From the IMG/VR virus record IMGVR_UViG_2912874417_000004, positions 32,001 to 96,000 of that record: a stretch of DNA of 64,000 nucleotides; one strand, 5' to 3'. The stretch is from a virus. Its lineage: Duplodnaviria; Caudoviricetes. Shown here piece after piece: positions 1 to 63,761 of this stretch. The position numbers were made by a program, and so were the translations under genes. Positions within the stretch are counted from its first letter, which is position 1. Each line of letters begins with the position of its first letter. Below the pieces are notes generated by a model. That model was not told the DNA's origin. It saw only the letters and a program-made list of their open reading frames with translations, and made no database searches.

Positions 1-3000
1 GCTTGTTTTTATCCCTGTCTAATACGGTTCCTGCAATCCGAGTTGTTCCATATTCATAGAGAGTTCTCCCTCTCCATTGATATGGCTTCCCTTTAACCGG
101 CTCTTCTGGTAGCTCATAAAAATCAACAATGTCATATTTAGCAAAGTTAACACCAGAAAGCTCATGATCGGTATAATAATAGCTCAATGAATCCATTTCC
201 CATTTGCCATATGTACCGCTAGCATATTTAATCCACTCATTATTGAGTAGTCTTCGATTTAAAAGTTTTAGAGCCTCATCAGTTCCTAACCATTTTTTTA
301 ATGCAGTCATCTTTTTGTCATATTCTTTTTTAAATGCATTCTCTGAGATTATGAGATGTTCATTGTGAAAATCCACCACACAATTTTCATCAAAGTTTTG
401 GTTAAAGAACTCAGACGCTGCATCATCTAATAAATAAAGCTTATCTTTAGGTGATTCGATTGTCTTAAAGACTTTCTTTGAAATATATTCTTTAAATTTA
501 AAGCACCTAACTTCTAAAGCAAATTGTTCAGGAATCAAATCGTTTTCTAACATCATACCTATATTTGCCATGGTTAATTTCTTTTTAGGTTCGGCAATTA
601 TTGTGATGTACTTTTTCATGATTTCTTTTCGGTCATCAAAGGTATCAAAGCAGCCTCCCTTAATCAATTGTATTACTTGGCCTTTTTTGATTTTTCCTGT
701 ATAGAATAATTTATCAAGGAATTCTTCAAAGGACTCGTATGGCCTATTTGAAATTATTCGGTGAACTATTTCATCTCCAATTCCATTCATGCCTTTCATT
801 CCAAAGATAATTGAATTGTTTTGAATATCTGCCTTAAAACCAAAACCAGCCTTATTAACATCAGGTAAATCAACCTTTATACCTCGATGGCGTATGCTTC
901 CTATAGCCGAAGCAACTTTCCCATAGTCAGTTTTCTGAGTCTTCTTATTTCCGTCTTTGTCTCCTGCTTCTTCTTCATTTTCAACACCACCACTGTTAAC
1001 TGTCAAACAGGCAGTGTTCCAGTATAAAGGGTTATATCGGTAGTTTAAGTTCAACTCCTGTAACGCAATAATGGAATACGCTAAAGTATGAAGTAGACTG
1101 AAACTGTAGCCAAACTGTCTTTTAAATTGAACATTCCACACATAATTCAAAAGAGCGTCTGACGCACCAACCTCCTTCCCTTTCTTGAAGAATAAGTTCT
1201 GAACTTCTTTTAATACATCTTCTTTTTTCTTTGCTATGGATTTCCTTAAATAATTTGACTCCTTAATATCGAAACCGGCTATATCTTTATCCATTACCAT
1301 TTGCATGACAACTTCTTGAGTGTCAGCAACTCCATAAATGTCTTTTAAATATCTTTCAACCACCTTTATCCCGGCATTGCTTAGACCATAATTGCGCATT
1401 TCTTCATACCATAGTGACATATTGTTCTTATACTTTACATATGTGTCAACAGGTTGCTCTTCTCCATCAGACATTAAACGCATTAAAGAGTTTGTGACTG
1501 CCGCCTCAAGCAGGCTTTTGGGTTTAACTTTAATCACAGATTGGTGGCCGACCTCGGTCGAAAACTGGAACAAATCCATTACCTCTCCATTACCAGCCAT
1601 TTCCCACAGCCTTGGATCTTCATATTCAATTACGTCTGGATGAATGTATTTCTTGTATGTTTCCTTTAAGTTTCCTTGCCATTCAATTTCTTTGTTCTCG
1701 ATTAACTGGTCTAAGGTTACTCGAATCTTATCTAAAGCCTCAATGGTCAGAAGATCAAACTTTACCGAGCCCATGGCTTCACTATCACCCATGTTAAACT
1801 GTGTAATAAAAGCTCCTTTAGGAGTTTTCATCATTGCATTCGACTTTGTATATTCATTGTTAAAGATAATAACTCCAGCTGCGTGAGAAGACCGTTTATT
1901 AGTTAATCCTTCAATTTTCAGAGCTGTTTCTTTAAGATTGGGGTATTGCTCAACCTCTCTAATAAACTCTTTCATTGGTTTTCTGTTAGTTTCTATGTCA
2001 CCATAAAAACAATGCGTTAATGGCCAGTTAGACCCTCTTTCATAAGGAATCATCCCACTTAAATATTCAGATATATCGTTATCTATCCCTAAGCCTCTAC
2101 ATGCTGTCTTAAGCGCTGATTTTGAGCCCTCAGTTCCAAAAGTAGCAATTTGAAGAACACGTTTGTCTCCAAATCTTGTTCTAAGTGCCTTAAGAATTTT
2201 TTGTCTTTTTGATCCTTCAGTATCAATATCGATATCTGGAAGATCAGGTCTAGATTTATGTATATGTCTCCAATGTGGTAAATCATATTGCATTGGGTTA
2301 AATTGAGTGTTGTCGAGTAAATAGTTAACGAGATATCCTGCCGCACTTCCCCTGGCTGCCCCAACTAAACTATCTCCACCACACTCATCATCCCAAATAA
2401 TATTAATTATTTCTCTGACTGTTATGTAATAAGAAGGCATGGACTGGTTTAGCTTTTGGCTGATTTCCCAAAGCTCTCCTAGCTCAACATTAATCCTATT
2501 TAATATTTTGTGAAATGCATCCTTTGTTAGTTCATTTGTTTTCAACTTATCATCAAAGCCATCTTCAATTAATTTCAAGAGATATCTGTCCTGCTCATCT
2601 TTCGATTCAGACATCTTCTTTATGTACTCATACTCATTATATGCTGGTTTAAATAAATGCCTCAATTTAAACTGTGGTAGCTCCATTTTTGGAATAATTG
2701 GTTCGTGCTCAATAGTATAGTCTTCAATCATCTCTCCAATTAGTAATGTGTTTTCAATGGCCTCATTGATGATCTCTTTGTCCATGTAGTCCATTCTCTC
2801 ATGAATTTCATCAACATTCTGAACAAAACATGCCTCATAAAAAGAGTCGACTTCTCTCTCTCCATCCTTGGCATTTAAAAAGGCTTGGTGAATTGCCCTG
2901 TCTTCCGGTCTAAGAAAGTGTGCATCAGTTGTGACTATCATTTTTAATCCATAGCCGTTAGCTATATCAACAAGTTTCTTATTACAATAAATCTGCTCTT

Positions 3001-3637
3001 CACTTAAAGCTGGCTGAAGCTCAATAAAGAACTTATCTTTCCCAAAGACTTTTACACACCATGTTATAAACTCGTGAATTTTTAATTTGTGCTGCTTGAT
3101 TGACTGAATGTTTCCACTTTCTTCGCAATCTTTGATTCTGAGTAAATTGATATTCACCTCAGAGCCGAGACAAGCTGTTGTAGCGATAATGTGACCTGGA
3201 TCTTTGCTAAGCAGTTCTTCTACATCCTTTTTAACTGTTGGCACTCTTTCCATTGTTCCTGTGTAAAATGAATTTCCCCAGGCTTGTGAAGACAGTATTC
3301 TTAGCTGCTCATGTCCTATAGGATCAATTGCCAACATCAAGAAGTGTGGAAATTTTGTCTGTCCTGACTTATAGTTATCACGAACTTCTTCCAGTGAATC
3401 GATTAAATATGCTTCATTCCCCAATATGAGTTTAAAATCTGTAGGCATATCCCCTTTCTTCTTCATTTCTCTGACAGTCTTAATCGCTTCTAAGTGCGCT
3501 GAAAGAACCTCATGGTCAGTAATAGCTAATCCTTTATAATTCATCTGAACCGCTGTCTTAAGCAATTCTCCAACTGAGTTTGTTGAATCGAGTAGTCTTA
3601 TGTTACTTTTATCAGTGTGACAGTGACATCCAATCAA
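1..3637 (-). CDS. yorL: DNA polymerase III alpha subunit (DnaE-type), runs off the left edge
   Basis: Read manually: TTG start at 3637 gives MIGCHCHTDKSNIRLLDS (PHP HxH); same frame gives GDSLVGAARGSAAG and PDLPDIDID near 2240-2380 and is still open at position 1. Confidence 0.93.
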   Translation of the reverse strand, partial: MIGCHCHTDKSNIRLLDSTNSVGELLKTAVQMNYKGLAITDHEVLSAHLEAIKTVREMKKKGDMPTDFKLILGNEAYLIDSLEEVRDNYKSGQTKFPHFLMLAIDPIGHEQLRILSSQAWGNSFYTGTMERVPTVKKDVEELLSKDPGHIIATTACLGSEVNINLLRIKDCEESGNIQSIKQHKLKIHEFITWCVKVFGKDKFFIELQPALSEEQIYCNKKLVDIANGYGLKMIVTTDAHFLRPEDRAIHQAFLNAKDGEREVDSFYEACFVQNVDEIHERMDYMDKEIINEAIENTLLIGEMIEDYTIEHEPIIPKMELPQFKLRHLFKPAYNEYEYIKKMSESKDEQDRYLLKLIEDGFDDKLKTNELTKDAFHKILNRINVELGELWEISQKLNQSMPSYYITVREIINIIWDDECGGDSLVGAARGSAAGYLVNYLLDNTQFNPMQYDLPHWRHIHKSRPDLPDIDIDTEGSKRQKILKALRTRFGDKRVLQIATFGTEGSKSALKTACRGLGIDNDISEYLSGMIPYERGSNWPLTHCFYGDIETNRKPMKEFIREVEQYPNLKETALKIEGLTNKRSSHAAGVIIFNNEYTKSNAMMKTPKGAFITQFNMGDSEAMGSVKFDLLTIEALDKIRVTLDQLIENKEIEWQGNLKETYKKYIHPDVIEYEDPRLWEMAGNGEVMDLFQFSTEVGHQSVIKVKPKSLLEAAVTNSLMRLMSDGEEQPVDTYVKYKNNMSLWYEEMRNYGLSNAGIKVVERYLKDIYGVADTQEVVMQMVMDKDIAGFDIKESNYLRKSIAKKKEDVLKEVQNLFFKKGKEVGASDALLNYVWNVQFKRQFGYSFSLLHTLAYSIIALQELNLNYRYNPLYWNTACLTVNSGGVENEEEAGDKDGNKKTQKTDYGKVASAIGSIRHRGIKVDLPDVNKAGFGFKADIQNNSIIFGMKGMNGIGDEIVHRIISNRPYESFEEFLDKLFYTGKIKKGQVIQLIKGGCFDTFDDRKEIMKKYITIIAEPKKKLTMANIGMMLENDLIPEQFALEVRCFKFKEYISKKVFKTIESPKDKLYLLDDAASEFFNQNFDENCVVDFHNEHLIISENAFKKEYDKKMTALKKWLGTDEALKLLNRRLLNNEWIKYASGTYGKWEMDSLSYYYTDHELSGVNFAKYDIVDFYELPEEPVKGKPYQWRGRTLYEYGTTRIAGTVLDRDKNK

Positions 3638-3649
3638 TTTTCATCCCCC

Positions 3650-5377
3650 TTAAAACACAAGTTCTTTTTTCTTTGTACGAACCACCTCCAAGTCATAAAT
3701 TTCAATTTGAGGTGTTTGTCTGCCCTTATATTCATTTACCCTTGCCTTACCAACAACATTAAGTATTAAAGTTCCATTTGATTGAGTAAGTTTCTCAAAG
3801 TATTCTGTATCGCTTTTAAAGCGTATGTATTCAATATCTCCATGTTTAAACTTGACTGTTGTCTTGTTCTTTTTCCCTATGTGTTCAATTTGATCAACAT
3901 CAACTTCTATTTCTGTTATTGCTACTAATGGTTCTTCGACCTTATAGCCCCAATAATCTTTATAGCTATACAGCTTAATTAAAAATTCCTTTCTAAGTTG
4001 ATTAGCCGGTATCTCAAAGTCAACATTTTGAACTTCTTCACCTGTCTCTGCATCTTCAAATTTTTCATTTAGAACTTCATTAACCAAAATCAAGTTTTCA
4101 CGCTTGATTGCAAATCCCGCTGCATTTGAATGGCCTTCAACAAATTCAAACAGCCCTGTATCTGTTAGCTCTTTTTTAAAGTCTTTGATGTAACCAGTCT
4201 CATACCCTCGAATAGACCCGCTCAACACCCCTTCTTCTTCATCGCTTTTTCTAGCCAGCAAAACTGGCTTTTTATATTCACCTGCAAGTACATTTGCTAC
4301 TAGCCCAGTCAAGCTTTTATCCAAAACCCCCTCAGTGTAGACTATAAGCACTTTATTAGCTGCCAAATTCTTTTCTTCAATTCTGTTTTTAATTTCCACA
4401 GTAGCTGCATCAACAATGCGTTTCTGTTTAGCTTTAAGGTTCCCCAAAATTCTGGCTGTGTCCTCGTGAATTGACACCAGATTGCTTTCATCTTGTCCAC
4501 GTTTCTTATATGGAACTTTTTCCTTAGACAACAGAAATGACCTCAACAATTGATCTTTTTCTTCAGTGCTACCGACTCTTATAGCTGCGTTAATTAATGG
4601 ATTAATAAAGAACTGTGTGTTCTGAATGTTTTTGCAACCCTTGGTTGAGAACTCTTGCTTTTTAAAAAGCTTTTTGATTAATGGATGCTTAATGTTCCTC
4701 AAGCCTTCATTCATAAAGTACCTAGTCTCTAAATTTCTTGAATCAGCTGAATCGGCTATGTTACCAATAGAAACAAGATCTAAAAATTGTTCCGCTTTGG
4801 TTTTACCAAGCTTATAATCAATGGCCTGGCAAAGCTTATATGCCATTCCAGCACCCGTTAATGTTTTGTTTGAATACTCAATCGAGAGTTGATTATTGAC
4901 GACTATAGCGTGCTTAGATTCTCTTTCACATTCATGATGGTCAATAACAATTACATCTACGCCCTTCTTTTTTAGCTCCTCATGTTCATCAAATTGACCT
5001 GATCCAGCATCCGGAATTAAAACTAAGTCGACATCATCCGGAATTGTATCAATGAAAATGCCGTGCTCTTTACCCTCATGAATTCGGTATCGTATATCAG
5101 CTTTCGGATAAATTGCTTTTATGTAATTGATAATAATTGAACTGGATGTGTACCCATCTACATCGCTATCCACCTGAACAAATATTTTATTTTTATTCTC
5201 TAAATGCTTTATTAAACAATCAGCTGCTTTATCAATGTTGTTGAGTTTTGAAAAATGAATTACTGCACTTTGATTCACATCAATAAAGCTCTTCGGATTT
5301 TCAATCCCTCTGTTTTTTAAAATTGTCGACAATGGATTGAAATTATAATCATTGTTGCCAATGAGCTTATAAGCCAC
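3650..5377 (-). CDS. yorK: RecJ-like ssDNA exonuclease (DHH family)
   Basis: DSDVDG, IDHH, GSIRG, GHSNAAG motifs; 575 aa. Confidence 0.92.
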   Translation of the reverse strand: MAYKLIGNNDYNFNPLSTILKNRGIENPKSFIDVNQSAVIHFSKLNNIDKAADCLIKHLENKNKIFVQVDSDVDGYTSSSIIINYIKAIYPKADIRYRIHEGKEHGIFIDTIPDDVDLVLIPDAGSGQFDEHEELKKKGVDVIVIDHHECERESKHAIVVNNQLSIEYSNKTLTGAGMAYKLCQAIDYKLGKTKAEQFLDLVSIGNIADSADSRNLETRYFMNEGLRNIKHPLIKKLFKKQEFSTKGCKNIQNTQFFINPLINAAIRVGSTEEKDQLLRSFLLSKEKVPYKKRGQDESNLVSIHEDTARILGNLKAKQKRIVDAATVEIKNRIEEKNLAANKVLIVYTEGVLDKSLTGLVANVLAGEYKKPVLLARKSDEEEGVLSGSIRGYETGYIKDFKKELTDTGLFEFVEGHSNAAGFAIKRENLILVNEVLNEKFEDAETGEEVQNVDFEIPANQLRKEFLIKLYSYKDYWGYKVEEPLVAITEIEVDVDQIEHIGKKNKTTVKFKHGDIEYIRFKSDTEYFEKLTQSNGTLILNVVGKARVNEYKGRQTPQIEIYDLEVVRTKKKELVF

Positions 5378-30283: not shown

Positions 30284-31342
30284 TCATTTGTTCAAAAACA
30301 TTTTAAGTTTATTCTGTATATACATGTCTGATTTTAAAAAGAATTCTTTATATTGCTCTAAGGCAACATCGTCTAAAAAGGACATGTCTTCTTTTTGATC
30401 AACCAAAACCCCTGGATCTTGAGAATAATCCCTTTCATTGACTAAATAATGATCATTTAAAGTATTGATATTGCTGTGGCCAGAGAACGCTGCCACTTTT
30501 TTAATATCACCATTAACGCTGTAAGAAAAGTTTGTTGCAGTATTGCGTAAACTATGCGGAGTTATCTTTCTTTCTTTGGGAATACCCATAACTCTACATA
30601 CGCGATTCCACATATCCTGTATTGAATCAACTGTTAACTTATGAAATAACAGTTCATGCTCCCCATACTCTTGCTTTAACAGCAACAACTCTTCATAAAA
30701 AGCAGTGGAAATCCCAACTGGCCTAGCCTTTTTTTGCTTAGTTTTTTTAAAGTTGACGAGATAGCATTGGTGCTTTTCTGAATAAGTAATATCATCCCAC
30801 CCAACTCTAAGCACCTCTGATTTACGCCCACCAGTACGTGCACTAAACAAAATAAACATCTTTTTCATTAATCTGTTCTGACGCTCAGTAACATAAGCTG
30901 CCTCAGCAAACTCATCAGCTTCCGATATTCCTTCAAAAGACCCTGCTGGGTTCTTTTCTGTCGGAAGAGGTCTAAAATTAAATACAGATGAATCACACTC
31001 ATGTTCAGATTCAAGATACTTAATCATGCTTTTCAGTGCGGCAATCTTATTGTTAATTGTTGAATTGGAGTTGCTTTTATTTTTAGCCAAATGGGTTCGA
31101 TAATCATACAGGTCGCTCTTCTTGATCGCCAGGTCACTCTCAGTTAAATATTCAATATCCTTGGCAGCATAGTGGTTGAAAAACTCTCTTATATGCCTTT
31201 CATACGTGGCTCTAGTATTAGACTTTTCAATTTCTCCAGTTTCTCGATCCCTGTTTCTTAAATCTAATTCATCAAACCACCTATTTATGTTATTGTATAT
31301 TGAATAATCCCTTAGTGTTGACGCTTTCTTTTGAGCTTCCAT
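30284..31342 (-). CDS. yopP: SroD/YopP tyrosine recombinase-like protein
   Basis: TGGRKSE, HSLR, SGHSN...HY catalytic-type motifs. Confidence 0.85.
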   Translation of the reverse strand: MEAQKKASTLRDYSIYNNINRWFDELDLRNRDRETGEIEKSNTRATYERHIREFFNHYAAKDIEYLTESDLAIKKSDLYDYRTHLAKNKSNSNSTINNKIAALKSMIKYLESEHECDSSVFNFRPLPTEKNPAGSFEGISEADEFAEAAYVTERQNRLMKKMFILFSARTGGRKSEVLRVGWDDITYSEKHQCYLVNFKKTKQKKARPVGISTAFYEELLLLKQEYGEHELLFHKLTVDSIQDMWNRVCRVMGIPKERKITPHSLRNTATNFSYSVNGDIKKVAAFSGHSNINTLNDHYLVNERDYSQDPGVLVDQKEDMSFLDDVALEQYKEFFLKSDMYIQNKLKMFLNK

Positions 31343-48210: not shown

Positions 48211-49443
48211 TTACAAATCATTATTTAACCAATCAATAAACATTAACCTCATTCTTCTTGATGGAATGTAAATTGAAATCGAATCATTATTTCTTATGCT
48301 ACTTCTCCATATCCATTGAATCATTTCTGAAAGGGCAAAATAAGTCTCATCAACTTTAACACCCTTAGAGCTAAAATATTCAACTAATAATGGATTACAA
48401 TAACGGTTAATAGCATAAACCAGTGTATTTTTATGACTATGTTCATTTGTAGACCGGATATTACATGGTATGAATCCCTTAGTATATCCCTTGCCTGAAA
48501 GCCTTGGTTTATAATCAATAAACGTTGTCCACATATTAAAGTTTGATTTAGACTTACATATGTTCTGAAAGTAATTCAGGATATTATTCTGCAGTCGTTT
48601 ATGTAAAACCCTTTTGTTTCTGTACCATCCTTTTGATAAAGAGTACTTTTCTTCACCGATTTTATTAAGATCACCATCATATACATTTATCTTGTTTTTA
48701 ATTTTATTCTTAATATGCTTGTCTGCTGCTGAATCATACGGCACGCACTTATATTTTCCCTTATCTTTTTTAATCATATATTTCTCATAAGGAATGTTAT
48801 TTAAATCATAATAATACTTCTGTAACTGCCCATCGAACAGATATGTTAAGTTGTATACTTCTTTAAACAATTTGAATATGTCAGCAGGAAAGTTCCATAG
48901 TATGACTGAATCATTATGTAATATTAAATTGTTATTCAATGCAAGTTGTTTCAAGTGTTTAAACTCTCCATCATATTCCCTTTGCATATTCTTTTCTTGT
49001 TCCATATTCCAGATTATTCGATCGTCTTTATTTATTATCCAGTTATTTTTAAATAACATATCCAGGTCATCTGCAGATATGTTTAACTGTTTTACAACCT
49101 CTATTGCCTCGTCCAGTATCAAAGTATAATTACCTGAATAGATGAGTTCTTTTGTTGTCTCATTTGCCATCTTAAAGAGTGCGTGTGTAGTTGCTATATT
49201 CTTATTATCTGAAAGGTGTTTATGTAATGAATCCAGTTTATAAAATGTTTCTCCGTTAACGCTGTGTATCTTAGGTTCAATAAACTTCTTATCAGGACAT
49301 GCTTCCTTGATCCTCTTCACCTCATCAAGATAAGGTGTAATAAAAATAAACTTATCATCTGTAGGTGCTTCATTCATCTTTTGAATCATGTAACTTGTCT
49401 TACCCGATCCCATTATAGAATCAATTATTTTAATTTTATCCAT
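48211..49443 (-). CDS. yonV: SF2-like helicase/ATPase
   Basis: MGSGKT, LILDEA, QWIWRS. Confidence 0.8.
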   Translation of the reverse strand: MDKIKIIDSIMGSGKTSYMIQKMNEAPTDDKFIFITPYLDEVKRIKEACPDKKFIEPKIHSVNGETFYKLDSLHKHLSDNKNIATTHALFKMANETTKELIYSGNYTLILDEAIEVVKQLNISADDLDMLFKNNWIINKDDRIIWNMEQEKNMQREYDGEFKHLKQLALNNNLILHNDSVILWNFPADIFKLFKEVYNLTYLFDGQLQKYYYDLNNIPYEKYMIKKDKGKYKCVPYDSAADKHIKNKIKNKINVYDGDLNKIGEEKYSLSKGWYRNKRVLHKRLQNNILNYFQNICKSKSNFNMWTTFIDYKPRLSGKGYTKGFIPCNIRSTNEHSHKNTLVYAINRYCNPLLVEYFSSKGVKVDETYFALSEMIQWIWRSSIRNNDSISIYIPSRRMRLMFIDWLNNDL

Positions 49444-49813: not shown

Positions 49814-50017
49814 TTACCTTCTTTTGGCGTATACAAAGTAAGCGATCCATGACAAAATGACAATGATACACGTTACTATGAAGATAGCCGTAATAAGCGA
49901 CTGTATTCCGCTGCTAAAATAATCTTTGATGAAAAGGAATAATAAGAATAAAACAACAAATGTAATGTTCGTAAACCATAATGAGAATCGTTTCATGTTT
50001 ACAATGTGCTTGTCCAT
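49814..50017 (-). CDS. yoyJ: YoyJ-like small membrane toxin
   Basis: Two TM segments, directly downstream of yonT. Confidence 0.6.
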   Translation of the reverse strand: MDKHIVNMKRFSLWFTNITFVVLFLLFLFIKDYFSSGIQSLITAIFIVTCIIVILSWIAYFVYAKRR

Positions 50018-50030
50018 GTTATAATATGGG

Positions 50031-50130
50031 TAGTGACTAAAGGGGAATTAATCCCCTTTAGCGTGTTATCTGCGTATACGTTTGCGTTGTCTCTTGCTAC
50101 GGAGGCGCTTGCGTGTACGCTTTTTATTTT
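50031..50130 (+). ncRNA. SR6-like antisense antitoxin RNA (ends approximate)
   Basis: Plus-strand TTTACA-16-TATAAT promoter with extended TG at 49998-50025 reading into the 3' end of yonT; hairpin 50037-50061. Confidence 0.55.
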
Positions 50131-50245
50131 TGCTTTTCTTATTCTTCATCAGGTTTTGAATCTTCTCAGCTATCGTTAAACAGTTGATGATTAAAACCGT
50201 GATAGGAATAAGGAAAGCAATTGTTATACCCACTTTCTCAAGCAC
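50066..50245 (-). CDS. yonT: Type I toxin YonT
   Basis: GTG start after AGGAGGTG; single TM followed by a very basic tail KKRTRKRLRSKRQRKRIRR. Confidence 0.85.
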   Translation of the reverse strand: MLEKVGITIAFLIPITVLIINCLTIAEKIQNLMKNKKSKNKKRTRKRLRSKRQRKRIRR

Positions 50246-51232
50246 TATGTACACCTCCTTTCCTATAACTCTATTATAGCACACTTCCCCTAAAAAGTCA
50301 TTTTATTTTTACTCTCAAAATGGATTTTATTAAATTATTTTGGACTATTATTCATGGGTGTTTGTAGGCTGTATAAGGCATGTATGTGGATTGGATACCA
50401 ATGATACTATGATTAATTTAAAATTGATTCTAGGTGTATTAGAATGCTTCTGATGATGTTATGGTCAGTGTGATATGGGATGGATATATGATGATGTGTG
50501 GTGAATGGAAACGGATAGAGATGATTAGGTAAGATTCAGGGTGGATGTAATGAGATGAAGGGTGAGAAGAAATATTATTAGAGTGAATATAAAATAGGTG
50601 TGTGAATTGATGAGTAAATTGTATAGATAACACTTCGATTTGCTCCCTCTCGTTATACACACGATTATTTTTAATGAATGAGTATTCATATTTTAATTGA
50701 CCGCTTAATTATTTTTTCAAAAATAAATATTGTTTTTCATTTGAAATTGTGTTAGATTTGCAAATTTATCAGCCAAATCATAAAAACCCTACATAACGTA
50801 TCTTATATAGGGAATTAAATACCAATATATAGGGGGTATATTAACATCTAAAGGCCAAAAAATAGGAACAAATGTACCCCTAGCACTTCCATTTCCACAC
50901 CCTACTTATTTTTTCACTTTCCCGTTTTTAGCCTTTTTTCGCATCGTAATCGCTATCGTAAAAGCCTATAATATCAATGTTTTTCCACCCCTTATTCTCT
51001 CCTTTTTCATCAGATTCTTAAATAAACAACCACTTTTCCTCTCTCCTGTCTACGTTTTACGATCACAAAACACCTATTATCCCCTTTGACATCTCTAAAA
51101 CATTGCTATATCAACTAAATAACCCTTTCCAATCTTCATTTACGATAAGCACTTTTTTAGGTCACGATCACCCGGGGGTCATTAAAAATCAAAATAAAAA
51201 AAGCCACCATAATAGGTAGCTTCCCTTTAAAA

Positions 51233-52345
51233 TTAACGTTTTAGTCTCTTCAGTGCCTCCATATACGAGGTCTTTTTCGATTCCTTGTTCTCCAGTTTCT
51301 TCGGTTTAAATAAATCCTCTCTACGGCGATTCTTCGCTTTATAAACAGTTGTTTCTTTAACTTCAGTGTTCCCATTTTCAATTAAATCATCTAACTGCTT
51401 CATTCGCTCATTGATCCAGGTTAATCCACTAAGAATCGTTATCGCCCTATTACCTTTATCATAATGCCCTTTAAATAAGTCTAGGGGCATCTTGTTATCA
51501 AAGACATTAAACAGCTCATTATACGATATATGCTCCGTTAAGAACTCATGAACATCCAGAATAACTCCAGCTCTCATCACATTTGTAAACTCAACAGGAG
51601 TAAATATCGAATTGTTCCACGACTTCTGTATATCTTCATGTAGCTTATCAAAATACTTGCCCTCATTTGTAAATTCATTGAGGTTTGCTTGGGCAATAGT
51701 CATGATTCCTGGTGTATCAAACAGCTGATTTAAATCCTTCCTGTCTAAGGTGCTGATCTTTGATCCTCTGTCCGTGTAATTAAGTAAGACTTCAATTAAA
51801 TCCAGGAACATTTTGTTTGTTTCCTTGTAGAGTCTGCTCTCTGAAATCTTTCCTTCGTATTTGCGAAAAACCATTTGATTATCCAAAGGTAAAACACAGG
51901 TCTCTGGCAGAGATAATTCATCTAGTAGCTCCAGCGAATTAATCTGATTAACCAATACCTCATTGTTATCAGGAAGGATTGGAACAGCAACTATGGTTTT
52001 ATGAGCAAGGTATTCGTTTAACAATTCTAATAATATAGGAGCTACCCCTGAACCGGTTCCACCAGCTGCAGAGAAAGCAACAAATATGACTTGTACTGAA
52101 GGCTTTTCCATTGTGTTCTTTATAAACTCAATTGAAGATTCCCAGTTGTTTTTCATATGTTTCGCTGCTATGCTTCTGTCTTTACCTACTCCTTCTGTCC
52201 CTACCAGATGAAGCTTATCTTGAATATTGATTAATGAATTAAGGTCTGAAAGTGAATAATTTATTGCAACAGAATGAAATCCTCTCTTCATTGCTTCATC
52301 TGCTACACTTCCACCGGCCTGTCCAACTCCAATAAATCCAAACAT
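51233..52345 (-). CDS. Tubulin/FtsZ-family GTPase (TubZ-like)
   Basis: GVGQAGGS, EGVGKD, SAAGGTGSG tubulin signature, LDN, LDRKD; basic C-terminal tail. Confidence 0.88.
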   Translation of the reverse strand: MFGFIGVGQAGGSVADEAMKRGFHSVAINYSLSDLNSLINIQDKLHLVGTEGVGKDRSIAAKHMKNNWESSIEFIKNTMEKPSVQVIFVAFSAAGGTGSGVAPILLELLNEYLAHKTIVAVPILPDNNEVLVNQINSLELLDELSLPETCVLPLDNQMVFRKYEGKISESRLYKETNKMFLDLIEVLLNYTDRGSKISTLDRKDLNQLFDTPGIMTIAQANLNEFTNEGKYFDKLHEDIQKSWNNSIFTPVEFTNVMRAGVILDVHEFLTEHISYNELFNVFDNKMPLDLFKGHYDKGNRAITILSGLTWINERMKQLDDLIENGNTEVKETTVYKAKNRRREDLFKPKKLENKESKKTSYMEALKRLKR

Positions 52346-52629
52346 TAAACCCTCTCCCCTTCTAATTGATATCGTAAAGCTTCTTGTCCATATTGAGTAA
52401 TAAAAACTGTATGCTCTTTGCTATTTTTCACTATATTAATAAACTGCAAGGCCTCAAGACGATCGATGCTCTTTCTAAAGGTGGCTTCAGTTAACTGAGT
52501 TTTTGCTTGAATGGTTTTCTTCCTAATTGATTTAAACATTAAATCTGCCCCTTCATCGCTCAATAAGCCTAGAATATACAAATCATTTCGAGTTAAATTA
52601 TCAATGACTGAATCAAAATAAGTATCCAT
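52345..52629 (-). CDS. Winged-helix DNA-binding protein (TubR-like); start set at MDTYFDS
   Basis: AAGGAGGGG RBS; IQAKTQLTEATFRKSIDRLEALQFI wHTH; TAATG overlap with the tubulin gene. Confidence 0.7.
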   Translation of the reverse strand: MDTYFDSVIDNLTRNDLYILGLLSDEGADLMFKSIRKKTIQAKTQLTEATFRKSIDRLEALQFINIVKNSKEHTVFITQYGQEALRYQLEGERV

Positions 52630-52683
52630 GTAACCCCTCCTTAATATCTGATGATTTTGAAGTATCTTGGTTGATATACGATT

Positions 52684-52738
52684 ATTATATTGTTCATTTG
52701 CATTTAAATGCAAATACTTTTGTATCTTAATGCAAATA
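52684..52738 (-). promoter_or_regulatory. tubRZ promoter (TTGCAT-18-TATAAT) overlapped by a 20-bp palindrome
   Basis: ATTTGCATTTAAATGCAAAT at 52696-52715; AATGCAAATA repeated at 52707 and 52729. Confidence 0.65.
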
Positions 52739-52807
52739 ATTACACTCTGCTTGTATGTAAACCAGTCATTTTATAAAATTTATTCAAACAGCAAAAGGAT
52801 GATTTAA

Positions 52808-53044
52808 ATGGAATATAGGGTTAAAAGTAAGTTGGATTCATTTCTAAGTAGCAAAGGTATTGAAAAAGGCTGGTTAGCAGAGCAAATAAAAGCTGAAAGA
52901 GCAAGTATATCTAGATGGTGTAAAAATGACAGCGAGGGATTTGCTACCGTCCTCCCTAGTACATATAATCTTTTATTAATGGCACATATTCTAAATTGTA
53001 AAGTTGACGATCTTTTTGAATTAATCGAAATTAAATCCAATTAA
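52808..53044 (+). CDS. Xre-family HTH regulator
   Basis: KGWLAEQIKAERASISRWC...LNCKVDDLF. Confidence 0.75.
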   Translation: MEYRVKSKLDSFLSSKGIEKGWLAEQIKAERASISRWCKNDSEGFATVLPSTYNLLLMAHILNCKVDDLFELIEIKSN

Positions 53045-53059
53045 CTTTGGATTTTTATG

Positions 53060-53088
53060 TTTACAAGAGTAAAAATAAAATATATAAT
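53060..53088 (+). promoter_or_regulatory. yonP-yonO promoter with SPBRE-like repeat in the spacer
   Basis: TTTACA-AGAGTAAAAATAAAATA-TATAAT; two more repeats near 53132 and 53352. Confidence 0.75.
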
Positions 53089-53163
53089 AAAGATACAACC
53101 ACATGAAGTGGTCTTTATTTTAATCATTTTAAGAGTAAAAATAAAATAGTATGGAGGTGTAAG

Positions 53164-53343
53164 ATGAAAAAGCAGTATTTATTTAGTCATTTAATGGGGT
53201 TTATTGAGGGAAAAGTAGTCGATGGGACAGCAACACCCGAAGAAGAATACCTTTATCAGGATTACAAATGGTACGGAAAGATTAATAAGCAAAGCTTTAC
53301 ATATCGAAGTTTAGTAAATCAATATCTTAATAGCGAATATTAA
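53164..53343 (+). CDS. yonP: YonP-like 59-aa protein
   Basis: Read manually: MKKQYLFSHLMGFIEGK...; GGAGGTG RBS; precedes yonO. Confidence 0.6.
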   Translation: MKKQYLFSHLMGFIEGKVVDGTATPEEEYLYQDYKWYGKINKQSFTYRSLVNQYLNSEY

Positions 53344-53383
53344 GCACTTTTAGAGTAAAAATAAAATATAAGGAGGGGATTGA

Positions 53384-55909
53384 TTGAAAAGAAAAAAAGA
53401 CGGATTGTCTAAGCAAGTTCATATCTACAGTGTGGATACATCCGCATTTTACAATGACAAAGAAAATTCATTACATAATAAGATTTTGAAGTCTTATAGA
53501 TACAGAGATTATCTTAAGACATTAGACAATGTAAATAATAAACATAAGAAATACATATCACAAAGAATTACATACCTTAAAGAATGCCTCTATTCCGCAT
53601 TCGAAGAACATAACGACATAAGAGCACTTCGAACTGACAGCTTAAGGGACAATAAAGTGATTTCTTTATTTGATTCAGTGTTGACCCGTACATTAGGGAT
53701 TAAAGAAAACACCCTTTCAGAGGAAATCATGGTTGTCCAGACTTATCATTTTGAAGTATTGAAGGACATTATTGATCAAGGATTTTTACATAACAATGAA
53801 AAATACGTTTATTTCACAAGCAGCGCCGGTCAAATTCGTACAAAGAAGTCATGTTTCATTAAAAAAAGCACCTACGATAAGTATCAGGATGCTTTGACAT
53901 GCGGCTTAAGTATTGAAAAGATCAACTCCCTTGGTGGTAGTAGCATTAATAAATGGAATAGTTATATGGCCTTATCTAACAGCGCCAGTAGCCCTTGGGA
54001 GATTGATATTGATAAAGCTATTGTAGTCAACGACTTAGAAACTGATGTGTCGAGTCTCGTTGACTACATTGATCGAGACACCTACAAGATCACACGAAAA
54101 ACAATGAACATTCCCATTGAGCATACAGATGGCTGCGGAATGATACTCCCCACTCTAAGTCGTAAAAGCTTCATGGTAAGGCTCCCGTGGGTAAAGGGTC
54201 TATTAGTCCCTTTTGATTTTCGTAAATTTACTGAGGAAAACAAAGCTTTTAAAGTAACTGATATATACGGCAAGGAATGGGACGTAGTGAGAGATGATAT
54301 TCAAATTATCTTCACCAAAAGCCAGTTTAAAATGTGGAAGTATTATTCATCGTGGGAAGAATATCAAGTCAATTATAAAAAATATGGATGCTTAGGGGCA
54401 AAACTCAACGAAGAAGATCCTTCTGTTGAAGGTAAGCTCACTTATCAAATGCTCCAGACGCTTACAGATATCTCGGATAAAGAATTAATTCAAATGAGCT
54501 CTAAGACTGTAAAAGAGATAAGCACATTGGGCACTGATAAAGAAACCATGTTAAGAGTTCTTGGAGCTACGGAGAAAAAGAAGCATCGAACAGCTCTTCA
54601 GGATGCTTTACTTCTATATCCAGAACTTCTTAACGATGATCACACGAAAGAAATTATTAAAAATAAAAAGAAAAGCATGATTAAAGATGCCAAATCAGGA
54701 AAATTGCTTGTTGACGGTGCTCGTTATACATACTTATGCCCTGATCTGTATGCTTTCTGCGAAAAATTATTTCTGAACATCCAGAATCCAAAAGGACTGC
54801 TTTTAGGAAGTGATGTCCATTGTTCTTTATATGATGAAGGGTATATTGATATCCTCCGCTCCCCTCACCTATTCAGAGAGCACGGTGTTAGGTGGAACAA
54901 AAAAGATGAAAAATATGAAAAGTGGTTCATTACCCCAGGTGTTTACACAAGCATTCATGATCCGATATCTAAACTGCTACAGTTTGACAATGACGGGGAT
55001 AAGGCCTTAATTATTTCTGATGAGTTAATCGTTAATATTGCAAAGCGTAATATGGAAAACATCGTTCCGTTGTATTATGAAATGTCTGTAGCCCAGAAAC
55101 AAGAGATTAATAGCAAGAACATCTATGAAGCACTGACTCTTGCTTATGGAATCAATATCGGGGAGTACAGCAACAACATCACTAAGATATGGAACAGTGA
55201 CAATATAAATCTTGACGTGATCAAATGGTTATGCATGGAAAATAACTTTACTATTGATTTTGCAAAAACCTTATTCATGCCCACCCGTCCTGATCATGTT
55301 GATGAAAAAATTAAAGATTACATAAAAAATAAAGTACCCCACTTCTTCATCAATGCAAAGGATAAAGAAGAACATAGCGTTGAGTTAATTAATGAAAGCA
55401 CAGTAAATAAGTTAGACTCCATTATCCCTTCTGACCGAATTAATTTCGCATCAGTAGCAGGAAAATTTGATTATCGTTTCCTGCTCAAGAACAAGGAGAT
55501 TAAGTTGGACGAGGCAATTATTAGTGAGTACAAACGATTAGACCAAAACAAGAAATGGCTCATGAATGATGAAGACATTAAGCCTGGACAAAAACTTTAT
55601 GTTTATAAGGTCATTAAAGACAGATTGTTAAAAATCCACAATGACGAGCAATATGTTACTGATGTTTTAGTAAAGTACCTATATAAAAAGAAAAGCAAAT
55701 TTAAATCAACATTATGGGAGTGCTTTGGAGAGACTTTATTAGAGAATCTAAGACATAACTTAAAGACTTATAGAGGATGCTGTAGTTGCGGAAAAATGTT
55801 TAAGTCGACTTCGCACAAGGCGAAATATTGTCCAACCTGTGCAAAGAAAATAGCACAAAAGCAAAAAAACAAGTGGAAAAGGGATAAGTGGAGGAAGGAA
55901 GAAAAATAG
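53384..55909 (+). CDS. yonO: Phage single-subunit RNA polymerase YonO
   Basis: 841 aa; TDGCG, LRSPH, catalytic FDNDGD. Confidence 0.92.
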
Positions 55910-62013: not shown

Positions 62014-63761
62014 TGGCTAGTTATAAAAACTTCACCTCAAAAAACAAGAAGCATACAAAAAACAGAACAGATATTTACGACGCAGCTTTTGAAACTCCTC
62101 TGAATCCAGATGACAATTCAAACCTCATTAGCAAGAATATCTCCAAGTGGGCTGAGTTCACCTCATTTATTCGTTTTTATCCAGACATTTTTTACGATAT
62201 GTTGAAACCCGAAGTCGGCGGAATTGAGCTAGATTTATACCAAAGAGTTATGATGAGAACACTCAGTCGCTTCCCTCAGAACTACTTCTGTATTCCACGT
62301 GGTGGATCAAAAACGCTTACCCAGATCATGGTTGCATACCATACAGCTATTTGCTTTCCTAATGTAACGTTAGCCATTACCGCTTCTACAAAGGAATCAG
62401 CGGTGAAAATTTGGAAAGAAAAACACGAGGAAATTTTAAGGTTTTATCCTTCCATTAAAGATGAAATCAAGAGTGAAAACTTTTCAAAAGACAGCGGTCG
62501 GGTCGAATTTCAAAACGGGGCCATCATCGATAACCTGGCAAATGCCCAATCCTCTAAGGGTTTACGTAGAAGACGTGGCTCCTTAGAAGAATCTGCCTTG
62601 ATTGATAAAGATTTATACGATGATGCTATCGAGCCGATCTTTAATATCCCTCGCACAACCATGACTGGCGAAATAGATCCTGCTGAATTAAATGGCCAGA
62701 TTAACCGGTTCTCTACATCAGGATATAAAAACTCAGATGAGTACGAAAAAATCCTTACGATGGTTAAGGAAACTGGTGATCTTAAAGGATCCTTTGTATT
62801 TGGATCAGATTGGCGCATTCCTATTCACTTTGGTCGTCAAAAAATGTCTGTTATTAATAAAGCGCGACAAGGAAATGTAACTCGCTTCCGTCAGAATTAC
62901 CTTTGTGACTGGATTGGTGCAAGTGACGGCGCATTAATTAATATCAGTAAATTAATCAAAGCCCGGACTATTACCCATCCCGAACTTTCTTGCCCAAGAG
63001 ATAAAAATAAGAACTTTTTGCTGCACGAATATGTAATCGGGGTAGACGTTGCCCGCTCAGCAGCTGAATCAAACAATAAAACAGCTATCGTTGTTTTGAA
63101 GATAATCAGAAACAGCAACAACCTCATTAGGCAAGTTCAAGTGGTTAATATTATAGAGCCACCAAACGGATTGAGTTTTAAAGAACAATCAATCATGGTA
63201 AAAAGAGTTTTCAAAAACTATGGTGGCAATCAAGATACTTCCCTCTCAAGAGTTAAAGCTGTTATTGTCGATGGAAACGGAGTCGGTGGCGGTTTAATCG
63301 ACCGGTTATTAGAGGATGTTACGGATCCGGAGACCAATGAAGAACTTGGGTGCTGGGCCACAATAAACACTGATCAAAAGCCAGATGTCCCAAATTCGCC
63401 GGAAATCGTTTATAACCTAAAATCCCAAGGCATTAACCAAGACATTATCACTCAATTCCTGGATTATGTTGAGTCCGGAAAATTGAAGTTACTAAAGTCC
63501 TATGATGACATCAAGAACCAAAAAAGCATATCTGATGATGTAATGATTGAAGCAGCATGTATTCAAACTCAATTGTTCATTGACGAAGTTGCAAACCTCA
63601 GAATTAAAAAGACACAGAATTCTTTCACTGTTGAGCAAGTTGTAAAAAGAATCGATAAGGATAGGTACAGTGCAATTGCTTATGCGCTGTATTACATAGC
63701 TTTATTTTTAGAAAAGGAAGAATCCGATGATGAATATTCATTTGGATTCTTTTTTAATTAG
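62013..63761 (+). CDS. yonF: Terminase large subunit
   Basis: PRGGSKT, LEE, IGVDVA, DGNGVG, KDRYSA. Confidence 0.88.
   Translation: MASYKNFTSKNKKHTKNRTDIYDAAFETPLNPDDNSNLISKNISKWAEFTSFIRFYPDIFYDMLKPEVGGIELDLYQRVMMRTLSRFPQNYFCIPRGGSKTLTQIMVAYHTAICFPNVTLAITASTKESAVKIWKEKHEEILRFYPSIKDEIKSENFSKDSGRVEFQNGAIIDNLANAQSSKGLRRRRGSLEESALIDKDLYDDAIEPIFNIPRTTMTGEIDPAELNGQINRFSTSGYKNSDEYEKILTMVKETGDLKGSFVFGSDWRIPIHFGRQKMSVINKARQGNVTRFRQNYLCDWIGASDGALINISKLIKARTITHPELSCPRDKNKNFLLHEYVIGVDVARSAAESNNKTAIVVLKIIRNSNNLIRQVQVVNIIEPPNGLSFKEQSIMVKRVFKNYGGNQDTSLSRVKAVIVDGNGVGGGLIDRLLEDVTDPETNEELGCWATINTDQKPDVPNSPEIVYNLKSQGINQDIITQFLDYVESGKLKLLKSYDDIKNQKSISDDVMIEAACIQTQLFIDEVANLRIKKTQNSFTVEQVVKRIDKDRYSAIAYALYYIALFLEKEESDDEYSFGFFFN

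Follow-up and report, generated by a model that had tools for sequence, protein, structure and literature searches.

On balance, we read the gene pair tubR-tubZ as a complete type III (TubZRC) segregation operon of the pBM400 subtype, carried by an SPbeta-like phage and probably serving its episomal form. The operon was analysed in a 64,000-nt stretch of DNA (the window) drawn from a 130-kb IMG/VR record. SPbeta and phi3T serve as model temperate phages in work on arbitrium signalling, on switching by serine integrases and on excision linked to sporulation; both are regarded as strictly integrating. The literature that was searched contains no paper linking a tubRZ module to SPbeta-like phages. 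The features of the region are as follows.

51196-51227, minus strand: intrinsic-terminator-like hairpin and T-run, beginning 6 nt past the tubZ stop codon
51233-52345, minus strand: tubZ, 370 aa, tubulin/FtsZ-fold GTPase
52345-52629, minus strand: tubR, 94 aa, winged-helix centromere-binding protein homologue
52684-52713, minus strand: predicted sigma-A promoter of tubR-tubZ, TTGCAT (52713-52708), 18-nt spacer, TATAAT (52689-52684)
52696-52738: candidate tubC/operator, perfect 20-bp palindrome and degenerate second copy, offset by 22 bp, with four 11-bp half-sites
52808-53044, plus strand: XRE gene, 78-aa Cro/C1-type HTH protein (Pfam HTH_26), divergent from tubR

The tubR-tubZ gene pair

The first-pass annotation described a coupled operon encoding a TubR-like winged-helix protein of 94 aa and a TubZ-like GTPase of 370 aa, and both genes are found as proposed. 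Base 52345 is common to the tubR stop and tubZ start codons (TAATG, 1-nt overlap), which indicates translational coupling; the ribosome-binding site of tubR is AAGGAGGGG. The smaller product is a genuine homologue of TubR: a phmmer search pairs it with TubR of plasmid pBM400 from Priestia (Bacillus) megaterium (PDB 4ASN) at E = 6.5e-18, the match covering residues 1-89 in each protein, and the full-length alignment gives 39% identity. Nearly all of the roughly 50 related loci have a homologous small gene directly ahead of tubZ. The two genes are almost certainly a genuine TubR-TubZ pair.

TubZ contains a T1 motif, GVGQAGG (residues 5-11), as well as the AGGTGSG tubulin loop (T4, residues 94-100) and the basic tail noted earlier. 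Pfam Tubulin (PF00091) scores 72 bits against a cut-off of 33, and the phmmer matches in the PDB are CetZ (3ZID), c-st TubZ (4XCQ/3V3T) and RepX of a pXO1-like B. cereus plasmid (4EI7, E = 6.7e-6). Identity to TubZ of pBM400-type Priestia plasmids is 41%. Residues G95, G96, G98, G100, D201, and D204 are invariant in an alignment of 27 sequences, the last two being the acidic residues at the T7/H8 junction. The AlphaFold (AF2) model has a pLDDT of 86.9 and a folded core; in the basic C-terminal tail, residues 328-359 are disordered and are followed by a short terminal helix (361-369), which is conserved in the same alignment. Foldseek returns c-st TubZ (4XCQ/3V3T) as the top match of the model, with TMt of 0.82-0.85 and E of ~1e-23, then CetZ, and then TubZ from B. 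thuringiensis and B. cereus (2XKA, 3M89, 4EI7). The Pfam, PDB sequence and Foldseek results all agree on a TubZ-type tubulin/FtsZ fold.

Two other identities were considered and rejected. NCBI annotations name the protein FtsZ. It reaches 26.5 bits with TIGR00065, whose cut-off is 295.2, and the label "cell division protein FtsZ" used in databases is hereby corrected for a protein family of more than 180 sequences. As for PhuZ, the PhuZ family phrog_4733 is matched with E = 1e-8 as compared to 7.7e-14 for an unnamed family, and PhuZ models in BFVD reach E ~1e-13 as compared to ~1e-23 for TubZ in the PDB. Furthermore, the TubZ tail is basic and a TubR adaptor is encoded alongside. The comparison with TubZ, PhuZ and FtsZ that the first-pass annotation suggested thus places TubZ first and PhuZ behind it, with FtsZ below threshold.

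Candidate tubC, promoter and the neighboring XRE gene

A perfect 20-bp palindrome over the promoter -35 had been claimed, and it is present as ATTTGCATTTAAATGCAAAT at 52696-52715. The -35 element TTGCAT of the predicted tubR promoter, read directly from the sequence, falls within it. The repeat said to recur 22 bp apart is likewise there, AATGCAAATA being present at 52707-52716 and at 52729-52738. A consensus promoter scan picked a different, overlapping site (TTTAAA-16-AATAAT); TTGCAT-18-TATAAT recurs ahead of tubR in locus L043 of Metabacillus fastidiosus. No other copy of the 22-bp palindrome is detected in the 130-kb record, even with 4 mismatches allowed, and extra palindrome or half-site copies elsewhere in the record do not rise above chance. 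With four half-sites, the candidate centromere is small beside the split iteron arrays of pBtoxis and c-st, which are larger; tubC of pBtoxis reportedly comprises seven 12-bp direct repeats. The position of the candidate can be compared with published systems, in which tubC is located upstream of tubR and represses the operon promoter (PMC6009700).

Sister prophages encode a 99-aa TubR variant and carry a different but equivalent palindrome (TTGTAATCATT/AATGATTACAA) in the same layout. This covariation between TubR type and palindrome was considered as proof of TubR binding and rejected. The cassette exchanged between sister phages, corresponding to 52399-53250 of the window, contains tubR, the operator and the XRE gene, with the XRE proteins of type A and type B being 42% identical. 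Since the XRE gene swaps together with tubR and the operator, covariation cannot tell which protein binds the palindrome, and from sequence the palindrome is not confidently assignable to TubR. The palindrome might be bound by the XRE protein as a regulator, or this protein might supply the module with its third component. Loci L027, L041, L042, and L043 also have a small divergent HTH gene.

A k-mer search of 22 diverse upstream regions produced a possible shared TubR box (GATAY/ATATC) with 3.5-4.4-fold enrichment. It was rejected as tubC because generic AT-rich hexamers, set against coding sequence as background, are enriched at least as much, and because part of it resembles a conserved -10/start region. 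Near the operon, the Rfam search for structured RNA gave only the SR6 antitoxin of the adjoining yonT module. Putative master-repressor boxes (AGAGTAAAAATAAAAT) flank the exchanged cassette and are absent within it, which fits regulation of tubRZ independently of the lytic genes.

Genomic context and conservation

The first-pass annotation placed yonS/yonR at this site of reference SPbeta, correctly so: in SPBc2, yonR-yonS are located between yonP and yonT, and tubR-tubZ fill that place in the window. The same slot in phi3T holds three small ORFs. Among the ~50 loci, tubR and tubZ stay together, in most cases with the 1-nt overlap, over a range of TubZ identity that extends from 98% to about 34%. 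In prophages of the B. velezensis/amyloliquefaciens, B. licheniformis, and B. pumilus/altitudinis groups, the pair is found at a syntenic position adjoining yonO/yonP and yonV. Across 222 pairs, tubZ has a median dN/dS of 0.057 and a maximum of 0.13, ratios that indicate strong purifying selection. A 1-nt frameshift interrupts tubZ in two of 24 close copies, so in some lineages the module is dispensable. The genus-wide search identifies two carriers among 49 Bacillus species representatives, as expected for an accessory prophage gene.

The variable accessory slot and the two frameshifted copies would suit a decaying or selfish passenger cassette, acquired from a plasmid and without any role for the phage. 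We consider this highly improbable given the dN/dS values above, the intactness of every GTP-binding and T7 residue, and synteny that is kept across at least three Bacillus species groups with TubZ identity down to 53%. TubR and operator are, moreover, swapped as a matched pair.

The module lies in the early region, beside the operon of the phage RNA polymerase yonO, and purifying selection persists in prophages that are overwhelmingly integrated. Both observations would agree with a lytic role, in which TubZ filaments, acting via TubR, position or separate replicating phage DNA or replication/packaging centers in a PhuZ-like manner, and the plasmid records described below are incidental. Tubulin homologues do occur in large phages, for example in Bacillus phage G (30% identity), and the weak match to PhuZ family phrog_4733 (E = 1e-8) points the same way. 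We nevertheless regard this role as unlikely. The protein is nearer to TubZ (PDB, E ~1e-23) than to PhuZ (BFVD, ~1e-13), and its tail is basic, unlike the acidic tail of PhuZ. A dedicated TubR adaptor and promoter-overlapping repeats are retained, and we know of no PhuZ system that has either. The master-repressor boxes of the neighboring early promoters are absent from the tubRZ promoter. Finally, tubRZ is missing from all 25 SPbeta-like isolates in the phage collection that match this region, so this phage type can grow lytically without it.

Integrated and episomal forms

The source copy is integrated, its left junction at record positions 1441/1442 interrupting a xanthine/uracil permease gene of the host, and most related IMG/VR records (29 of 35) are proviruses. 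Inspection of the full genome for an integrase and att sites, as the first-pass annotation had advised, finds the left junction; the 130-kb record contains no large serine recombinase. The record ends about 10 kb before the end where the B. velezensis plasmid plaBV1 has its integrase. In related IMG/VR records, the large serine recombinase, where seen, is at the record edge, like sprA in SPbeta.

At least two "plasmids" in PLSDB are shown here to be whole SPbeta-like phage genomes. The first, plaBV1, is circular (122,487 bp) and collinear with the source prophage; its TubZ is 96.5% identical to that of the window, and the palindrome is identical. The second, the circular plasmid of B. pumilus FUA2116 (124,561 bp), carries a version of the module with 53% TubZ identity at the corresponding site. 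PLSDB contains three SPbeta-like plasmid records, of which two are TubZ-positive. For B. velezensis HMB26553 (CP097467-9), the genome paper lists no other SPbeta-sized region of 35% GC in the chromosome. No ParA (AAA_31) is detected in the source record, plaBV1 or the FUA2116 plasmid. The proposal that this phage type segregates an extrachromosomal genome is plausible. It is supported by two circular plasmids that have the module and no ParA, but the source copy and most of its relatives are integrated, and both plasmids retain a large serine integrase. A circular contig could also be an excised phage that was assembled separately.

Directly downstream of tubZ are about 900 bp of non-coding DNA with repeats (50318-51223), and the FUA2116 plasmid has a similar gap of about 1.4 kb. 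If tubRZ and this adjacent DNA belonged to a plasmid-type replication module for a low-copy episome, the system would not be purely one of partition. The detectable homology to RepX (PDB 4EI7, E = 6.7e-6) is compatible with such a replicon; repX of pXO1 and the tubRZ homologues of pBtoxis (ORF156/157) are said to have been first reported as replication functions. We judge this quite improbable. Segment 50700-51064 of the non-coding DNA is also conserved, at about 82%, in phages of the phi3T type without tubRZ, which makes it part of the phage backbone and not of the cassette, and no Rep gene or iteron array is located next to the module. Later work recasts TubZ and TubR as partition proteins (PMC6009700, PMC7762940).

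Proposed function

Stable inheritance of a non-integrated circular form is the most likely use of the segregation operon, since an integrated prophage needs no partition system. TubR dimers would bind the paired palindromes over their own promoter, thereby controlling their own operon and tagging the phage DNA. TubZ with GTP would form dynamic filaments, and its basic tail and terminal helix would engage the TubR-DNA complex, such that circular phage genomes are moved apart or poleward. The non-integrated form may be an episomal or plasmid lysogen, a genome awaiting integration or released by excision, or a phage in a host that has no free attB. We infer the binding of TubR to the palindrome, the polymerization of TubZ and the contact between TubZ and TubR, as well as the timing and purpose of the system.

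A broader and more tentative possibility is a dual lifestyle. SPbeta-like phages with TubRZ might integrate by means of the large serine recombinase if attB is free and otherwise persist as stable low-copy plasmids of about 125 kb (phage-plasmids), with the tubulin system distributing the episome when cells divide and perhaps also delivering it to the forespore. The two TubR/operator/XRE specificity types would then represent incompatibility or immunity groups. Conservation of tubRZ in relatives from the B. velezensis, B. licheniformis, and B. pumilus groups, along with the two plasmid-form genomes, suggests that an episomal phase matters in this lineage. If this is true, these phages would offer tractable, non-pathogenic models of type III partition as well as of the switch between integrated and plasmid lysogeny.

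Comparison with known systems

The closest characterized relative is the TubR-tubZ-tubC system of pBM400 from P. megaterium, which has the same operon order and a tubR that overlaps tubZ. In the pBM400 sequence we find three copies of AGTATCT and a partial palindrome, in both orientations, within about 90 nt upstream of tubR. The repeats differ in sequence, as the half-sites of the window read TTTGCAT. The upstream neighbors differ as well: the operator of the window has the small divergent XRE gene at its side, whereas pBM400 has a 326-aa HTH gene in the same orientation as tubR. Moreover, pBM400 is a 54-kb plasmid, while the window copy belongs to a 130-kb integrating SPbeta-like phage.

TubZ-TubR-tubC-TubY of c-st, a Clostridium botulinum plasmid-prophage, is the one phage-borne type III system that has been studied well. 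Its TubZ is the best structural match to the window protein, though sequence identity is 26%, and it depends on a flexible C-terminal tail (PMC5322520). The TubR of c-st is monomeric and is devoid of the N-terminal helix (PMC6009700); window TubR, in contrast, has the full pBM400-like length. The phages themselves also differ: c-st never integrates and has TubY, whereas the window phage integrates and has no detected TubY. A divergent MerR-like TubY is found in B. cereus-group, pBsph and clostridial systems and is required for stability in those of the B. cereus group (PMC7762940). A search of the 130-kb record with PF13411 for TubY (MerR-like HTH, coiled coil, lysine tail) gave no match.

In fold (tubulin/FtsZ) and operon logic, the window system resembles both TubZRC of B. 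thuringiensis pBtoxis and the RepX/TubZ systems on pXO1-like plasmids. At the sequence level they are very distant: tblastn of TubZ against B. cereus-group plasmids yields no match at 1e-5, and among these systems phmmer against the PDB yields only RepX (E = 6.7e-6). PhuZ of the nucleus-forming jumbo phages is likewise a phage-encoded tubulin homologue, and it positions phage DNA. The window system differs from it in having TubR and a basic TubZ tail, and its sequence and structure matches to PhuZ are much weaker than those to TubZ.

TubR and TubZ proteins

The two genes lie on the minus strand and share base 52345 (TAATG):

52345-52629, minus strand: tubR, encoding TubR
51233-52345, minus strand: tubZ, encoding TubZ

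TubR aligns from end to end with the TubR of B. megaterium plasmid pBM400, whose crystal structure is known (PDB 4ASN, E = 6.5e-18), and Pfam gives it only sub-threshold hits to winged-helix families. TubZ contains the motifs GVGQAGG and AGGTGSG, and its tail is rich in lysine and arginine. Its closest characterised relatives, from pBM400-type Priestia plasmids, are 41% identical, and the best solved relatives by sequence are a CetZ, TubZ of the Clostridium botulinum plasmid-prophage c-st and, weakly, RepX. Homologues down to 30% identity all keep the nucleotide-binding glycines and, at the T7/H8 junction, residues D201 and D204. An assignment as FtsZ is rejected (26.5 bits against the 295 needed for the FtsZ equivalog).

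In a TubZ model built from 27 homologues (pLDDT 86.9, pTM 0.85), residues 1-327 form the folded core and residues 328-359 are basic and disordered; a short helix ends the chain. The top Foldseek hits are c-st TubZ (TMt 0.82-0.85), followed by CetZ and then the B. thuringiensis/B. cereus TubZ proteins; E-values for viral PhuZ models are about ten orders of magnitude weaker. The comparison with TubZ, PhuZ and FtsZ proposed in the first-pass annotation returns a TubZ-type protein, with c-st TubZ as the first structural match and a score of 72 bits, above the Pfam Tubulin threshold. The pair is a true TubR-TubZ module of the pBM400 type, in a genomic setting that is new for it.

Candidate cis site

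A perfect palindrome, ATTTGCATTTAAATGCAAAT, occupies 52696-52715, and a degenerate second copy lies 22 bp away. The tubR promoter is predicted as TTGCAT-18-TATAAT, which would place its -35 element within the palindrome; a consensus promoter scan picks an overlapping site, and a clear terminator-like hairpin is present 3' of tubZ. All of the features first read from the sequence (coupled pair, AGGTGSG loop, basic tail, palindrome and 22-bp-spaced repeat) are found in the window. No other copy of the palindrome occurs in the 130-kb record with up to four mismatches, and its 8-bp half-site is found elsewhere in the record at chance frequency.

Two types occur among the sister prophages. Type A encodes a 94-aa TubR with the palindrome TATTTGCATTT|AAATGCAAATA; type B encodes a 99-aa TubR (52% identical to that of type A) with TTGTAATCATT|AATGATTACAA and a partial second copy 22 bp off that overlaps the promoter. 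The TubZ proteins of the two types are 93% identical. Each of the versions from the B. pumilus group and from Metabacillus fastidiosus comes with a palindrome of its own. From sequence, this pairing of TubR type and palindrome looks like matched protein-site specificity. The segment exchanged between the types (52399-53250) also holds the divergent XRE gene (42% identical between A and B), and the palindrome could therefore be bound by either TubR or the XRE protein. TubR is probably the binder, since tubC lies 5' of tubR and overlaps the promoter in all type III systems studied (PMC6009700).

Phage setting

The 130,193-bp IMG/VR record, of which the window is bases 32001-96000, is classed as a provirus and is SPbeta-like. 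The region is matched by about 25 SPbeta, phi3T and SPR phages at 82-86% DNA identity, and a flanking permease fragment, 98-99% identical to those of the B. velezensis/siamensis group, places the host in that group. The surrounding features are:

48211-49443: YonV-like protein
49814-50017, minus strand: yonT-like hydrophobic ORF of 67 aa, antisense and adjacent to SR6
50034-50131, plus strand: SR6 antitoxin RNA of the yonT toxin module (Rfam RF02892, 86.9 bits; gathering score 55)
50300-50315, minus strand: box AGAGTAAAAATAAAAT
53066-53081, 53131-53146 and 53352-53367, plus strand: box AGAGTAAAAATAAAAT
53164-53343: yonP-like ORF
53384-55909: YonO-like RNA polymerase (phrog_8308, score 1146)

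SR6 and the 67-aa ORF are the SPbeta yonT/SR6 type I toxin-antitoxin module. The gene order of SPBc2 is yonO-yonP / yonR-yonS / yonT-yonU-yonV, which bears out the first-pass statement that SPbeta carries yonS/yonR at this site; three small ORFs replace yonR-yonS in phi3T, and the XRE gene and divergent tubR-tubZ fill the slot here. The repeated box marks the yonP-yonO and yonT-side promoters and may belong to a master-repressor (SPBRE-like) operator set. It flanks the tubRZ-XRE cassette and is absent inside it, which suggests that the cassette is regulated separately.

About 900 bp 3' of tubZ (50318-51223) contain no credible ORF and give no Rfam match. Within this stretch, 50700-51064 shares about 90% identity with type B sister prophages and about 82% with a gap that carries no annotation in phi3T-type phages. 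As phi3T lacks tubRZ, the stretch is assigned to the phage backbone, either as a cis element or as an RNA.

Integrated and plasmid forms

In this record the phage is integrated: the stretch homologous to the B. velezensis chromosome stops at record position 1441, and the left junction (1441/1442) interrupts a host xanthine/uracil permease gene that lacks its 5' end, about the first 125 codons. No large serine recombinase is present in the 130,193 bp. Aligned with the B. velezensis HMB26553 plasmid plaBV1, the record ends about 10 kb before the other prophage end; the plaBV1 serine recombinase (start 63673) is directly beside the point matching the prophage left end. The absent ~10 kb is expected to include the large serine integrase. 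Ten related IMG/VR records carry such a gene 1-6 kb from an end or, in one linear record, internally, and 29 of 35 related records are classed as proviruses. Two tyrosine recombinase genes (Phage_integrase) are internal to the prophage, neither at its ends, as they also are in phi3T and three plasmid records:

Record 62443-62883 (window 30443-30883), minus strand: tyrosine recombinase
Record 108769-109287, plus strand: tyrosine recombinase

Circular plasmid records also exist. Circular plaBV1 (122,487 bp) is collinear with the prophage along its length, with a 96.5% identical TubZ and the same palindrome, and a circular B. pumilus FUA2116 plasmid (124,561 bp) carries a version of the module with a 53% identical TubZ in the same genomic position. 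PLSDB holds only three SPbeta-like records of plasmid size; two are TubZ-positive, and none of the three encodes an AAA_31 ParA. The third, the circular B. subtilis SH1 plasmid NZ_CP064819.1 (118,493 bp), has YonO and lacks TubZ, a large serine recombinase and an AAA_31 ParA.

In the HMB26553 paper, plaBV1 is described as a plasmid with 35% GC (PMC10177454). A single SPBc2-like region (83 kb, 35.5% GC, 'Chromosome 5772-88890') appears in the paper's prophage table, and no other of this kind (PMC10177454, Table S1). GC and coordinates fit plaBV1 (35.05% GC) better than origin-proximal chromosome, and the 'Chromosome' label may therefore be wrong; the table leans slightly towards a purely extrachromosomal plaBV1. 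Partition of an episome is the best-supported role for the module, and the main rival is that TubRZ positions phage DNA during lytic growth.

Distribution and selection

Among 50,697 phage records, no SPbeta-like phage has a TubZ homologue; the only matches are Bacillus phage G (30%) and c-st/D-1873 (26%). Outside B. subtilis the module is frequent. TubZ clusters at 93-94% identity contain 151 and 30 sequences, with further clusters at 66% in B. licheniformis, 53% in B. pumilus/altitudinis and about 40-49% in Metabacillus, Cytobacillus and Priestia species. Megabase contigs and one complete 3.9-Mb chromosome show the same neighbours: HU, YonK, YonJ, a YonO-like polymerase or a CoiA-plus-920-aa alternative, a divergent small HTH gene and YonV. 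We note that a 923-929-aa protein without a Pfam match replaces YonO in plaBV1 (664-4961), a B. licheniformis locus (L041) and a Metabacillus locus (L043), adjoined by a CoiA-family protein in plaBV1 and the Metabacillus locus.

At least 80 tubZ loci occur in IMG/VR (about 24 with >92% identity, six with 53%) on contigs of 120-140 kb, nearly all with a TubR homologue directly 5' of tubZ. Among 22 close tubZ copies, the median pairwise dN/dS is 0.057 and the highest value is 0.13. Two further close copies (2 of 24; IMG/VR loci L146 and L148, tubZ at 4001-5109) have a single-base frameshift; one base short and with stops in the fixed frame, they are either pseudogenes or sequencing errors.

Comparison with known systems

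No paper in the literature searched connects SPbeta in this way with TubZ, TubR or a tubulin-like protein. In contrast to known type III systems with the MerR-like third protein TubY, the record has no TubY. The module also differs from known systems in its compact, palindromic candidate centromere, in the non-coding ~900 bp after tubZ, which are part of the phage backbone, and in its carrier, an integrating phage.
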